A stretch of DNA of 34,896 bases, taken from the IMG/VR virus record IMGVR_UViG_2548877009_000017, positions 1-34,896 of that record; one strand, written 5' to 3'. The notes below the pieces were generated by a model, which ran no database searches, was not told where the DNA came from, and worked only from the letters and a program-made list of their open reading frames with translations. This DNA comes from a virus. Its lineage: Duplodnaviria > Heunggongvirae > Uroviricota > Caudoviricetes. Position numbers and translations under genes: made by a program. This document shows, one piece after another, positions 20,866 through 29,002 of this stretch; the first letter of the stretch is position 1, and every line of letters starts with the position of its first letter.

Positions 20866-21384
20866 CTAAATGGATAATTGCATGTCAAGGCTTTTAACAG
20901 CAACATGCTTAACTTTCTCAACACGTTTACGCATTTTGAAAGCATTTTGCATTGGCTGGTACAAAACAAATAACGATGCTTTCAGGATGTCGTCAATTTC
21001 GTTTCTACAGGTTGCCAGTGAAGGTTTTCTCCATCCCTCGCCACCACGTCCACACATCTTGCGTGGCTTTGCAGTCGCGTGATAGTAGGATGCAATTGCT
21101 CGCTTAGATGAACCATGAGCGTAGTAGCTGAGGAGGATGCCAAAGGCTTTCTTGTCAATGCACATGACGGAATCGACGACCTGAGAAATCAACATTCCAT
21201 CATCATCATTGCACATTGGCCTTGTCATAACTCTTCCCGGCTCTACGCTCTCCATGAACTTCGCTATTACGCTGCTCATGCGCTTTTCCAGACGACCTGA
21301 ATAAACCCATGCGCCCCACAGTTCAAGCCAGCCATTCAGCCACTCATGCTGTTCTTTGGTGAGGTTTAGTTCTCTTATGCCCAC
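20866..21384 (-). CDS. Late-gene antiterminator Q (P22 gp23 type)
   Basis: WLELWGAW and CNDDDGMLI motifs resemble P22 gp23; directly upstream of tRNAs and lysis genes; probable GTG start preceded by GGGAGAAGG. Confidence 0.75.
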
Positions 21385-24578: not shown

Positions 24579-25955
24579 TCATACGTCAGCCCCTTGTGCA
24601 TATCGTCTGCCACGTGCAGCGGGTGCATTTGATGTTGTGCAAATATGTCTGGCTTCATCCTGGTCACATGCAACAAAGTGTCCGTTGCAGAACCGCTGGT
24701 AAACCGTACCAAGTGAGCCAAAACGGTTTTTCGTCACGATGATTTCAGCAAATGGCGCGGCGCTACTGTTCTCGTCATATACCGCTTCCCGATAGAGCAT
24801 GATGATTGAGTCTGCGTCCTGCTCAATGCTTCCTGAATCACGCAAATCTGCGTTTGTCGGGCGTTTGTTTGGTCGCTTCTCAACATCGCGCGAAAGCTGA
24901 CTCAGGGAGATAACAGGCGTTTTCAGGTCTTTCGCCATCGCCTTCAGGCTTCCGGAGATGTGAGCAATTGCGAGGTCGTTGCGATCTGCTTTCGGCTTCT
25001 CAATCAGGCCAAGATAATCCGCCATGATGAGTGAGAGGTTTGGATTTTCCTGTTTGTGCCGCTCTGCGATTGAGCGAATTTCTTCTACCGATAACCGCGA
25101 GGCATCGACTACCCATACATCCAAATCTGCAAGCTGACTCATGCCTTTAGCAACACGTGCCCAGCCCTCGTCATCCATCGATGCAGGATTTCGCAGTACG
25201 CTAACCGACATCCTCCCGGCGTTGGCAATGCTTCGCTCTGCGATCTGCAATGCGCTCATTTCCATCGAGAAAATCAACACTCCGCGCCGGACGTCAGAAC
25301 CAGGAATAACGCGGCTTGCAACGCCTTCGGCAATCTTCAGCGCCAGCTCGGTTTTCCCCATACCCGGACGAGCAGCGATAATCACCAGGTCTTCCGAGTT
25401 CATCCCTCCGGTGATGACATCAAGTTCTTCGATTCCGGTCTTCAGGGTATCTGACTCTTCTCCGTTCCTCAGACGCCTGTCAAGCGTGTCAGTGTAGTCA
25501 GTGATGATTTCCCCTAACCGTACAGGTTTAACCTCGTCACGGGGCTTTCTGATGGCTGAAAGACGCTTTACAAGCTCATCCATCGCCTGACTCGATGCGT
25601 CGATGGTTCCGCTCTGAATTGGTTCACGCATTTCATCCATGATTTCCAGCACCAGACGGCGGTGATAGTTATCCGCGACCATTCCGGCATATCCCTTCAG
25701 GTTTGCGGCGCTCGGGCAGTTTTTGCTGGTCATCAGGATTGACGTGAAATGCTCCTCGCCGCACTCCTCGGCAACCATCAGCGCGTCGATTAAGTTTCTG
25801 TTTCGCGCCTGCTTGCGGATAACCTCGAAGGCTTTCCGGTAGAGCGGAATTGAAAACGCTTCCGGCTCAAGCGTTGCCAGAACGTCGCTGGCGGTTGGTG
25901 TTAATCCACCAATCAGCAGGCCACCGATAACGCTCGCTTCGATATCCTGTCTCAT
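24579..25955 (-). CDS. Replicative DNA helicase, DnaB family (P22 gene 12 type)
   Basis: 458 aa; Walker A ARPGMGKT, DnaB-like N- and C-terminal domains; overlaps initiator gene stop. Confidence 0.9.
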
Positions 25956-26899
25956 GCAATCCCCCTGTCTGCAAACTTCCCTTCCCGTACACCCGTTAAC
26001 GAGTCTTCTCTCAGCAGGTAATCAAAATCTGCCGTCCAGCCCGTGTCGTTGTCTCCGAAGTAAAACGGCTTGGCCTGATGCACAAACGCCCTGACATACG
26101 CTCTGAAACCGTCCACGTTTGGCGTTTTCAGTTGCGGGATGATTTTCTTCAGGCGGCGTTTGCGTTTCTCGTTGACCGCAACAGCGTGTGGAAGTCTGTC
26201 ACCGACTTCGGTGTTGTAGGCGTTCAGGAAGGATTCGTAGTCGATTCGTTCTGCCTTGCGACGTTCAGGTTTAACCTGCCCATCGCCTCCCCCATTGGGG
26301 GGTAGGGGGGTATTATTTATATTCTTGTTAATACCTTCTTGTTCATGATGTGCGGTTGTTTGTGCGGCTTCATGTGCGCTTTCATGTGCGGCATGTACGC
26401 TGAAAGCCGCGCTATTGCTGGCTTCATCATGTGCGGCATCATGTGCGGTTGTTTGTGCGGCTTCATGTGCGGGTAAATTGTCCATTTTTTGAGCATATTC
26501 ATGGTAATTTGTGATGGTTATCACACGGCCTTTTTGCTTCTCTCCATCAATGGAGATCATCCCCTCTTTCACAAAAACCTGAAGCATCCGCTCAACCTGA
26601 TCACGGCTTGCTGGCTTGCCATGTCTGTCGCATAACTGAAGACCTAAATCAGCTGCTGTCACAACCAGTTGACCGGGTTGCAGATGCCATTCATGACCTT
26701 TGAAATTCGCTTTGTATGGCTTTCTGGCGGCATTCAGGAGAAGGTTTTCCCACAGGGTGCGAAGATAAACATCTTTCGCCCATGACTGTTTCAGAATGCT
26801 CCGGTACAACGGAATGTAACCAGTTTTCTGGTTCTCCATCCTGTTGCTCCTGCGCTCGTGTGCGGCGCTGAAATCGTAGATTTTTGCTGTATTGCTCAT
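25952..26899 (-). CDS. Replication initiator, lambda O / P22 gp18-like, carrying the origin internally
   Basis: N-terminus [10 protein letters not shown] resembles lambda O MTNTAKILNF; central His/Ala-rich repeat segment encoded by iterons; 315 aa. Confidence 0.8.
26343..26475. repeat. Origin iterons: two clusters of four to five 12-bp direct repeats (core TGTGCGG) inside the initiator gene, adjacent to an AT-rich tract
   Basis: TGTGCGG/TGTGCGC at 26349, 26361, 26373, 26385 and 26430, 26442, 26454, 26466 (12-bp phase); identical 31-mer atgtgcggttgtttgtgcggcttcatgtgcg at 26348-26378 and 26441-26471; AT-rich tattatttatattcttgttaata at about 26310-26335. Confidence 0.7.
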
Positions 26900-26901
26900 A
26901 A

Positions 26902-27174
26902 CTACCTGCCTTGACGAAAGACCTTAAGAACATCGTTAAACTGACTTACGGATATGTCTTCTTTGAGAAGCTTTTCCAGAAATGCGTTTGGAATGAACGT
27001 ATATCCCTCCTCTTTTGGTAGAGACGGGAGCAACGCCCTCGCCTCAGCCTTCAGAAGCTCAGTTCTGGCAACTTTCACAAAAGAGATTTGAGTTCTTTCA
27101 TCAATGGAACGAAGGAAGCGCAAACGCTTAGCTTCTTTGTGTGTATCAGGTGGATTAAAGCCTTTGTTTCGCAT
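26902..27174 (-). CDS. Hypothetical protein between cII and the initiator gene
   Basis: 90-aa ORF from ATG 27174 preceded by GAGGTAA; lambda has no gene at this position. Confidence 0.5.
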   Translation of the reverse strand: MRNKGFNPPDTHKEAKRLRFLRSIDERTQISFVKVARTELLKAEARALLPSLPKEEGYTFIPNAFLEKLLKEDISVSQFNDVLKVFRQGR

Positions 27175-27181
27175 ATAATTA

Positions 27182-27259
27182 CCTCGTTGGATGTTGTTAA
27201 AATTCCATTTGTATTTGATCAGAACGCTCGGTTGCCGCCGGGCGTTTTTTATTGGTGAG
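27182..27259 (+). ncRNA. oop: oop antisense RNA overlapping the 3' end of cII
   Basis: 3' portion ...tttgatcagaacgctcggttgccgccgggcgttttttatt matches remembered lambda oop RNA including its terminator hairpin and U-run; antisense to cII stop region; 5' end approximate. Confidence 0.6.
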
Positions 27260-27490
27260 AATCGAAGCAACTTGTCGTGCCAATCGAGCCATGTCGTCGT
27301 CGACAACACCCCATTCAAGAACAGCAAGCAGCATTGAGAACTTTGGAATCCAGTCCCTCTTCCACCTGCTGATCTGCGACTTATCAACGCCCACAGCTTC
27401 CGCTGTCTTCTCAGTTCCAAGCATTGCGATTTTGTTAAGCAACGCACTCTCGATTCTTAGAGCCTCGTTGCGTTTGTTTGCACGAACCAT
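27197..27490 (-). CDS. cII: Transcriptional activator CII
   Basis: 97 aa MVRANKRNEALRIESALLNKIAMLGTEKTAEAVGVDKSQISRWKRDW..., essentially identical to lambda CII. Confidence 0.95.
   Translation of the reverse strand: MVRANKRNEALRIESALLNKIAMLGTEKTAEAVGVDKSQISRWKRDWIPKFSMLLAVLEWGVVDDDMARLARQVASILTNKKRPAATERSDQIQMEF
27464..27481 (+). promoter_or_regulatory. pRE-type CII-activated promoter element (TTGC-N6-TTGC)
   Basis: TTGCGTTTGTTTGC at 27468-27481 on plus strand overlapping the cII 5' coding end, oriented toward cI, as in lambda pRE. Confidence 0.6.
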
Positions 27491-27548
27491 ATGTAAGTAT
27501 TTCCTTAACTAATAAGAAGTTATGCGCATCAACTTATGCGCGTTGTAT

Positions 27549-27592
27549 TCCCGCATTTCGGCGGGAATGATGACCATGACTGTTAAAGAGCG
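27549..27592 (-). promoter_or_regulatory. Candidate nutR (boxA plus boxB hairpin) between cro and cII
   Basis: On minus strand CGCTCTTTAA (boxA-like, 27584-27592) followed by hairpin CCCGC-cgaaat-GCGGG (27550-27565). Confidence 0.5.
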
Positions 27593-27598
27593 GTGTTA

Positions 27599-27793
27599 CT
27601 ATTTGTTTTTCTTGTTGCTTGGGAAAGGACGAACTTCCTCTCCAATCACACTGCCATCAGGCTTTACCGTAACCATAATGTTACGACCTGCCAGAATGGC
27701 CTTGCTGATAGCGCACTGGATTACACCAAAGTCACTGGCTGCTTTAGCCTGTCCATGGATTTTGGCGTAATCGGCAAGTGTCATTCGAATCAT
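27599..27793 (-). CDS. cro: Cro repressor (lambda Cro fold family)
   Basis: [62 protein letters not shown] parallels lambda Cro; ATG 27793 preceded by GGAGAG. Confidence 0.8.
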
Positions 27794-27822
27794 ATGCACT
27801 CTCCGTTATTAACCATGAACAA

Positions 27823-27851
27823 AGAATACTACAGGTATTCAAAGCAATCAA
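27823..27851 (-). promoter_or_regulatory. Candidate pR promoter
   Basis: Minus strand TTGATT (-35) - 17 nt - TATTCT (-10), overlapping the two OR palindromes, about 30 nt upstream of cro. Confidence 0.45.
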
Positions 27852-27865
27852 TACTCAGGGTATTT
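27824..27865. promoter_or_regulatory. Two candidate OR operator palindromes (AATAC-N5-GTATT type)
   Basis: GAATACtacagGTATTC (27824-27840) and CAATACtcaggGTATTT (27849-27865) in the cro-cI divergent intergenic region. Confidence 0.5.
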
Positions 27866-27899
27866 TTAGTTTAAGTACCTTAGCTATTAGAATTAAGCT

Positions 27900-28616
27900 A
27901 TGGAAAATAAAAAATCACTGACGACAGAACAGCTGGAAGACGCTAAGCGGCTTAAGGCTTTGTATGAGTCAAAAAAGAAAGAATTGGGAATAACCCAATA
28001 CTCAATCGCTGATGAACTGGGTATCACCCAAGGAGCGGTAGGGCATTATCTTAATGGCAGAAACGCGCTAAACGTTGAGGTTGCATCTGGTTTTGCACGA
28101 TTGTTGCAAGTCTCAATTGCTGATTTTAGCCAGTCAATTGCTGCCAAGGTTGCAGAACAGGCAGAAAGCCTTAAGAGCGATGCCAACGTAAGGTATGCAG
28201 GGGAATACAGAGCAGGAAAGAGGTATCCGGTGTTAAGCAGTATCCAGGCTGGCTCGTGGTGTGAAGCATGCGAACCATACACCATTAAAGACATAGATGT
28301 TTGGCTTGAGTCTGACGCGCATATTCAAGGTAATGCGTTCTGGCTTAAAGTGGAAGGTGATTCAATGACGGCACCGGTTGGGTTAAGCATTCCAGAGGGA
28401 ACATTCGTTCTTTTCGATACCGGAAGGGAGGCGATCAACGGCAGCTTGGTCATAGCAAAACTTTCTGACTCTAACGAAGCAACATTCAAGAAGCTGATAA
28501 TCGACGGCGGAAATAAATACCTCAAGGGACTTAACCCTGCATGGCCTCTCGTGCCAATCAATGGAAACTGCAAGATTATAGGCGTTGCAATTGAGACAAA
28601 ACTAAGGCTGGTTTGA
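27900..28616 (+). CDS. cI: CI repressor, lambda cI family (HTH N-domain plus LexA/S24-like autocleavage domain)
   Basis: MENKKSLTTEQLEDAKRLKALYESKKKELGITQ parallels lambda CI; C-terminal GDSM and KKL catalytic motifs; recognition-helix region differs from lambda; no SD upstream and TAGAAT -10 about 7 nt before the ATG suggests a leaderless pRM transcript. Confidence 0.9.
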   Translation: MENKKSLTTEQLEDAKRLKALYESKKKELGITQYSIADELGITQGAVGHYLNGRNALNVEVASGFARLLQVSIADFSQSIAAKVAEQAESLKSDANVRYAGEYRAGKRYPVLSSIQAGSWCEACEPYTIKDIDVWLESDAHIQGNAFWLKVEGDSMTAPVGLSIPEGTFVLFDTGREAINGSLVIAKLSDSNEATFKKLIIDGGNKYLKGLNPAWPLVPINGNCKIIGVAIETKLRLV

Positions 28617-28633
28617 TCACGCAAGGGGCGCTT

Positions 28634-29002
28634 ATGGTTGGAACCGCTATAGCAAGCTTTTTTGGGATGTTGGCAATCTCGACAATTTACGGCTTAGCGC
28701 ATGCTTTTATTGCGAAATCTCTATCAGAAAAAATAAGCCAGGCTTGGGCGCATAGATCAGCTCGTTTCATGATTCTAGTGATCATAGCAATACAAGGGAT
28801 ATCTGCATTTATCCTCTATGGTTCAAGCTTATACCTGTTGTATAAAGGCGCGACATTTACGCCTTACACCAGTGATTACGGAACTCTATACGATGGTAGT
28901 GAAGACATCTATATGGCTTGGATCGTTTTTGGTTTATCTATGGCCGTGTCTGTTGTAGCAGACATCATTAAGGTAATTCTCGTCTTAACCTTCGCTGACT
29001 AA
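28634..29002 (+). CDS. Small integral membrane protein of unknown function, co-oriented with and immediately downstream of cI
   Basis: 122-aa ORF from ATG 28634 preceded by AAGGGG; three to four predicted TM segments; occupies the position of lambda rexAB. Confidence 0.55.
   Translation: MVGTAIASFFGMLAISTIYGLAHAFIAKSLSEKISQAWAHRSARFMILVIIAIQGISAFILYGSSLYLLYKGATFTPYTSDYGTLYDGSEDIYMAWIVFGLSMAVSVVADIIKVILVLTFAD

Follow-up and report, generated by a model that had tools for sequence, protein, structure and literature searches.

The general layout of the early-right region in lambdoid phages is cII-oop-orf-O-P, with phage lambda described as "naturally missing" the orf gene (Hayes et al. 2012, PMC3349717). 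The oop RNA of lambda overlaps cII by 55 nt, and lambda CII remains active without its last 17 amino acids, which are nevertheless needed for OOP control (PMC3349717). In P22 (NC_002371), the order is c1, the oop terminator, the oop promoter lying over the start of orf48, orf48 itself, gene 18, and gene 12, and in HK97 it is cII, gp53, O, and P, with a CATAAT hexamer over the gp53 ATG and an oop-type terminator in the 3' end of cII. Taken together, P22 orf48, HK97 gp53, and the published layout (PMC3349717) indicate that a small gene in this slot is the rule and lambda the exception. OOP RNA has been detected experimentally in the P22-like phage BTP1 (PMC7067206) and by RNA-seq in P22, where it is 63 nt long (PMC13397905), and it is listed for Stx phages in a 2025 review (PMC12197685).

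The sequence analyzed here (the window, a whole stretch of 34,896 nucleotides) showed 99.7% identity to phage CUS-3 by megablast and 98 to 99% to HF4s, JEP4, and Gally, all of them P22-like Lederbergvirus, and E. coli ATCC 11775 carries a prophage with a 100% match. The window is very probably a lambdoid E. coli prophage of the CUS-3/HF4s-like kind (P22-type, Lederbergvirus), and in this same assessment positions 27182 to 27490 are a canonical lambdoid lysis-lysogeny cassette carrying the lambda allele of cII. Both the cassette and its gene order are textbook lambdoid biology, already known, and GenBank contains this exact DNA, in CUS-3, HF4s, Stx2a phages, and the E. coli type strain. The discovery value is thus low: an earlier note on this DNA had read a known arrangement correctly, and its observations were confirmed at the coordinates given, while its interpretation is partly supported and the novelty that it implied is not. 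The early-right operon runs along the minus strand in the order cro, cII, a 90-codon open reading frame (ORF90), an O-like replication initiator, and a DnaB-type helicase (Table 1), the last of which completes the replication module beside the initiator. The cro-cII spacer (27512 to 27598), the expected place of nutR and tR1, is not lambda-like, and it contains a hairpin-forming stretch, TTCCCGCATTTCGGCGGGAA, at 27549 to 27568.

Table 1. Position of the genes and of the observed or predicted regulatory elements around the cII cassette (window coordinates)
Feature	Position	Strand	Assignment or comment
cI-type repressor	27900-28616	+	Peptidase_S24 + HTH
cro	27599-27799	-	Pfam Cro, E 3.6e-26
pRE (putative)	27468-27510	+	TTGC-N6-TTGC, then lambda-identical -10 region; points toward cro (antisense) and cI
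cII (97 aa)	27197-27490	-	Pfam Phage_CII PF05269, E 5e-48
oop intrinsic terminator	27221-27248	+	12-bp stem, loop UGCC, U-run; within cII C-terminal codons
Predicted oop-like antisense RNA, ~66 nt	27186-27251	+	3' 50 nt lambda-like
Predicted oop promoter po	27151-27179	+	TGGATT-17-TATAAT
ORF90 (90 aa)	26902-27174	-	phrog_2519; own Shine-Dalgarno sequence (GAGG)
O-like replication initiator (315 aa)	25952-26899	-	Phage_rep_O, E 3e-15; phrog_345
DnaB-type replicative helicase	24579-25955	-	DnaB_C, E 1.4e-77; equivalent of P22 gene 12

The cII gene product was identical to lambda CII at 95 of its 97 residues (the differences being A76S and E90D), bearing out the near-identity that the earlier note had claimed, and it scored 161.7 bits against the Phage_CII profile, well above the gathering cut-off of 21.3. 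At the DNA level, a block from approximately 27205 to 27508 aligned with few mismatches to the lambda segment containing cII, the 3' half of oop, and pRE; it takes in the cII ribosome-binding site, the pRE region, and the oop 3' half with its terminator. The TTGC-N6-TTGC direct repeat expected to flank the -35 of pRE was present, in agreement with the earlier note, as TTGCGTTTGTTTGC at 27468 to 27481 on the plus strand, inside the 5' end of cII, and the sequence remained lambda-like across pRE as far as about 27508, with cI downstream on the plus strand. The bare pattern occurs in the window at chance frequency (4 found versus 3.1 expected), so the motif is meaningful by virtue of one thing, its location inside the lambda-identical block. 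From the near-identity with lambda, we infer that CII would bind this element within its own first codons and activate pRE, and that the resulting transcript would run antisense through cro and into cI, an orientation that is read from the gene map. A second TTGC-N6-TTGC element, TTGCGTGGCTTTGC, was found at 21059 to 21072 on the plus strand, antisense within a Q-like antiterminator gene (minus-strand ORF 20866 to 21384), which is the expected place for a CII-dependent promoter of the paQ or P22 "23as" type.

At the other end of cII, a terminator scan picked out the oop terminator on the plus strand, with a sequence identical to that of lambda; the oop 3' segment next to it, part of the same aligned block, differed from lambda by a few bases. 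We placed the 3' end of the predicted RNA by analogy with that of lambda oop and its 5' end 7 nt past the predicted -10 hexamer, the latter being uncertain by about 4 nt in either direction. So defined, the RNA would be complementary to the final 55 nt of cII, including the stop codon, an overlap equal to that in lambda. Its predicted fold (-21 kcal/mol, z = -2.6) is dominated by the terminator hairpin. The stem was kept in nine related sequences (99% of cells paired), with compensatory double changes at two stem pairs (A-U to G-C or U-A at one, G-C to U-A at the other), and the covariation score was reached by none of 500 shuffled controls. The 5' stem-loop of lambda oop was not retained, since the first 40 nt of the predicted RNA folded no better than shuffled sequences (z = 0.23); that structure is a lambda-specific feature, and with it missing, the RNA may pair with different kinetics from lambda oop and have a different stability. 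An Rfam scan of 26000 to 29000 with E values up to 10 gave chance hits only, Rfam holding no oop family. The terminator segment taken alone matched in 1,211 of 5,426 complete E. coli genomes, and in HF4s the loop differs, being 3 nt longer (TCTTGCACA; approximately 2880 to 2895 in HF4s, equivalent to 27230 to 27240 in the window), with the stem retained.

As to where such an RNA would start, the earlier note had placed a candidate promoter over the beginning of ORF90, and a TATAAT hexamer indeed lies there, the first T of the -10 being the complement of the A in the ORF90 ATG. The -35 falls in codons 7 and 8 of ORF90, and the complement of the Shine-Dalgarno sequence sits just past the -10, ahead of the expected start at about 27186. 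The layout of this predicted promoter matches that in other phages. It reads TGGATT-17-TATAAT in the window, TTGAGT-17-CATAAT in lambda, TGGTCA-17-CATAAT in P22 (annotated oop promoter, NC_002371), and TGGTAT-17-CATAAT in HK97, with the -10 over the ATG of ORF90, O, orf48, and gp53, respectively; in lambda, the Shine-Dalgarno sequence is likewise found between the -10 and the start point. The sequence CGCATATAATT was invariant in six diverged loci carrying ORF90, including the non-coding ATAAT between the Shine-Dalgarno sequence and the ATG, while the flanking bases varied, and it was unchanged although the synonymous sites of ORF90 are saturated in the same relatives. In two of three comparisons, synonymous divergence over codons 1 to 12 was 0.2 to 0.3 versus 0.7 to 0.9 elsewhere, albeit with small numbers.

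The promoter was not listed by a strict sigma-70 consensus scan because its -35 matches at only three of six positions. The earlier note had also proposed an alignment to lambda oop and po, and this held for the 3' half and the terminator but not for the promoter and the oop 5' segment: positions 27140 to 27200, compared with the lambda po region, gave a local score of 16 against 17 ± 3 for shuffled sequences, i.e., chance, in line with the earlier note, which had called the oop 3' segment recognizably lambda-like. The same segment was borderline against P22 and weak against HK97. Without an above-chance alignment to lambda, the case for po is one of layout and not of sequence homology, and we regard it as a well-supported prediction at the level of the consensus, a candidate promoter. 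On this basis, a constitutive po, its -10 over the ATG of the next gene, would produce a short antisense oop RNA that would stop at the intrinsic terminator inside cII, pair with the last 55 nt of the cII mRNA, and, by analogy with lambda, reduce CII levels by way of cleavage by RNase III.

The conserved segment also lies at a boundary between genome modules. ORF90, po, and oop were 98 to 100% identical in CUS-3, HF4s, JEP4, Gally, Kapi1, TL-2011a, 48 records of Stx2a phages, and the ATCC 11775 prophage. In the first four, near-identity extends over cII too; the Stx2a phages, in contrast, have a different allele of cII, with homology to the window stopping at approximately 27259. The block that they have in common with the window (98.5 to 99.3%), which includes the replication module, comes from the left up to this point, and its overlap with the lambda-like block is confined to the 3' half of oop with its terminator (approximately 27205 to 27259). 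Such a pattern would be expected of a recombination joint where two mosaic modules, that of cII and that of replication, come together, and that the oop 3' half marks this joint is a point of modest value. A different explanation is that the oop segment has been conserved only as the code for the CII C terminus and as a recombination linker, with no functional antisense RNA. In its favor, the terminator is embedded in a coding region, the mosaic joints fall in the conserved stretch, and the promoter is a prediction. However, the compensatory double changes preserve the hairpin while altering codons, the last 17 residues of lambda CII matter for OOP control and not for activity, as mentioned above, the non-coding ATAAT does not vary among relatives, and the OOP RNAs detected in P22 and BTP1 come from the same layout. 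We therefore consider the purely coding explanation highly unlikely and retain that of a predicted antisense RNA that would act on cII.

ORF90 was described in the earlier note as an extra gene with a strong ribosome-binding site, occupying a gap between cII and the initiator where lambda has none, and as a possible recent insertion. The gene and its position were as described, with a GAGG 7 nt upstream of the ATG, but neither an unusual character nor a recent arrival withstood comparison. The slot is filled in P22 (orf48) and HK97 (gp53), in agreement with the general lambdoid layout (PMC3349717), and ORF90, with its own ribosome-binding site, is the occupant of this "orf" slot here. Its product is a full-length member of phrog_2519 (E value of 1.9e-57, residues 1 to 90 on profile positions 1 to 90), with no Pfam or NCBIfam match at normal thresholds. 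The earlier note had named a lack of conservation of ORF90 in relatives as a ground for refutation, but homologues were found at 71 to 80% identity, all with exactly 90 codons save for one 4-codon deletion. The dN/dS values ranged from 0.06 to 0.12, with synonymous sites saturated between relatives, indicating strong purifying selection. These values, together with the fixed length, show that ORF90 is a real and old gene; a spurious reading frame is ruled out by dN/dS and length and a recent insertion by the saturation of dS.

The distribution of the gene points the same way against a recent insertion. In all six diverged loci examined, ORF90 occupied the same position behind cII, from which it was separated by approximately 22 to 23 nt, and on contigs long enough to show them, genes for an O-like initiator and a DnaB helicase came next. 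Four different immunity regions were found with this synteny, cII-ORF90-O-like-DnaB. Members of this small family come from enterobacteria (E. coli, Salmonella, and Scandinavium), with 34 clusters in a word-indexed search and approximately 15 when 1.84 billion representatives were searched exhaustively with a profile. Narrow as phrog_2519 is, ORF90 was found in 278 of 5,426 complete E. coli genomes (about 5%) and in 57 phage records, 48 of which are Stx2a-converting phages, and it sits immediately ahead of the initiator gene; this prevalence is another point of modest value. It was left unannotated in the CUS-3 record (CP000711, 2553 to 2825), where the DNA is 99.7% and the protein 100% identical, and the absence of this real 90-residue gene from the CUS-3 annotation is likewise a point of modest value.

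The ORF90 stop codon lies 2 nt before the initiator ATG (TAG-TT-ATG here and TAG-CG-ATG in relatives), a spacing from which the two genes are probably translationally coupled. With the -10 lying across the ORF90 start codon and the initiator start codon close behind the gene, the "coupled regulation" suggested in the earlier note is plausible in the way that it is for lambda O. The arrangement resembles that of P22 in several respects: a small ORF follows the cII homologue and abuts or overlaps the start of the initiator, the promoter layout is of the form TGGxxx-17-(C/T)ATAAT, and a DnaB-type helicase gene occupies the same position. P22 gp18 and the O-like protein of the window also share the label "replication initiation O-like." The c1 and oop sequences of P22 are unlike those of the window, and orf48 is a protein of 48 residues belonging to phrog_1913, weakly similar to residues 9 to 27 of ORF90. 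HK97 gp53 has 53 residues and is unrelated to ORF90. The differences from lambda are that the next gene after cII is O there and ORF90 here, that the po and oop 5' sequences cannot be aligned, that the lambda 5' stem-loop is missing, and that cro, cI, and the replication genes of the window are of other types. The P22 orf48 gene (P22 positions 1850 to 1996) is labelled "tail protein" by both PHROGs and RefSeq; given its position between c1 and gene 18, this label is almost certainly wrong.

A sequence homologous to the lambda promoter does exist in the window, although it is located elsewhere. Positions 26866 to 26914, comprising the start of the O-like gene (its first 12 or so codons) and the preceding bases, aligned with the lambda po/O start with a score of 40, and the N terminus of the O-like protein resembles the lambda O start MTNTAKILNF. 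By this similarity, we interpret the segment as a relic of the lambda po/O start, and its DNA is unusually conserved among relatives. The functional oop promoter could accordingly be sought here and not at the ORF90 start, on the assumption that ORF90 is recent or spurious and has pushed the promoter away from cII, in which case the antisense RNA would measure approximately 345 nt and span ORF90 and the 3' end of cII. However, the -35 position of the relic reads TCGTAG and the -10 position CATAAC, with the final T missing, and in all diverged relatives the latter is CATCGC, so a promoter there is unlikely to be active. In addition, purifying selection and saturated dS make ORF90 neither spurious nor recent, and the TATAAT at its start is invariant. 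A displaced promoter is therefore very improbable, and the candidate po over the ORF90 ATG remains the preferred origin of the RNA.

The same two sites bear on where ORF90 might have come from, since "O-start" signatures are found in tandem, at 27151 to 27190 and at 26866 to 26914. One possible origin is an ancestral replication initiator, a piece of which would have been domesticated as ORF90 after a swap of the replication module left it behind; this piece would be made up of an orf48-type leader and of the first strand and two helices of the Phage_rep_O winged helix. Such a product might modulate initiation or helicase loading or might simply deliver ribosomes to the initiator. In 16 of the 19 family members, residues 54 to 88 gave a sub-threshold match to positions 6 to 39 of Phage_rep_O (best E value of 5e-5), and the same C-terminal residues also matched O-like and DnaD-like PHROGs below threshold. 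An hhalign comparison with residues 26 to 59 of lambda O gave 29% identity (E value of 0.0014, probability of 17%). Toward the N terminus, residues 9 to 27 share the motif HK...R.RFL.S with P22 orf48, to which they are weakly similar (hhalign E value of 0.0023, probability of 12%), and 10 of the 19 members touch phrog_1913, the orf48 family, with E values of 0.0024 to 0.2, the protein of the window being without a match.

Structural modeling was compatible with this origin. After a first AlphaFold2 model from 12 sequences (pLDDT of 58) was set aside, a model from 19 sequences (pLDDT of 83.7) consisted of a helical hairpin, a short beta-hairpin, and two helices. The beta-hairpin and the helices that follow it, at residues 53 to 87, look like the start of a winged helix, and the model is compatible with the first elements of that fold, ending before the recognition helix.

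Several results speak against a fragment of an initiator. All the similarities fall below family thresholds, the hhalign probabilities of 12 to 17% included, and the score of ORF90 against Phage_rep_O (PF04492) was 14.6 bits versus a cut-off of 28.7, covering only positions 6 to 39 of the 95 in the profile. No full-length initiator with an ORF90-like N terminus was recovered in the exhaustive profile search of the 1.84 billion representatives, no fold match was found in PDB or BFVD, a PDB sequence search with the family profile gave no match, and ORF90 showed no similarity to the O-like protein of the window itself. The strong amino acid constraint favors a function of its own for ORF90 over a relic, without saying which. 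We consider the fragment origin rather unlikely, and it is similarly doubtful that such a fragment has been retained to tune origin firing or helicase loading or to gate initiator translation at the site of the oop promoter. If true, this would physically link the lysogeny decision to replication licensing.

Within the O-like initiator gene, we also observed (T/C)TCATGTGCGG repeats with a 12-nt periodicity at 26342 to 26484. These are probably origin iterons, which encode a His/Ala-rich linker of the 315-residue protein.
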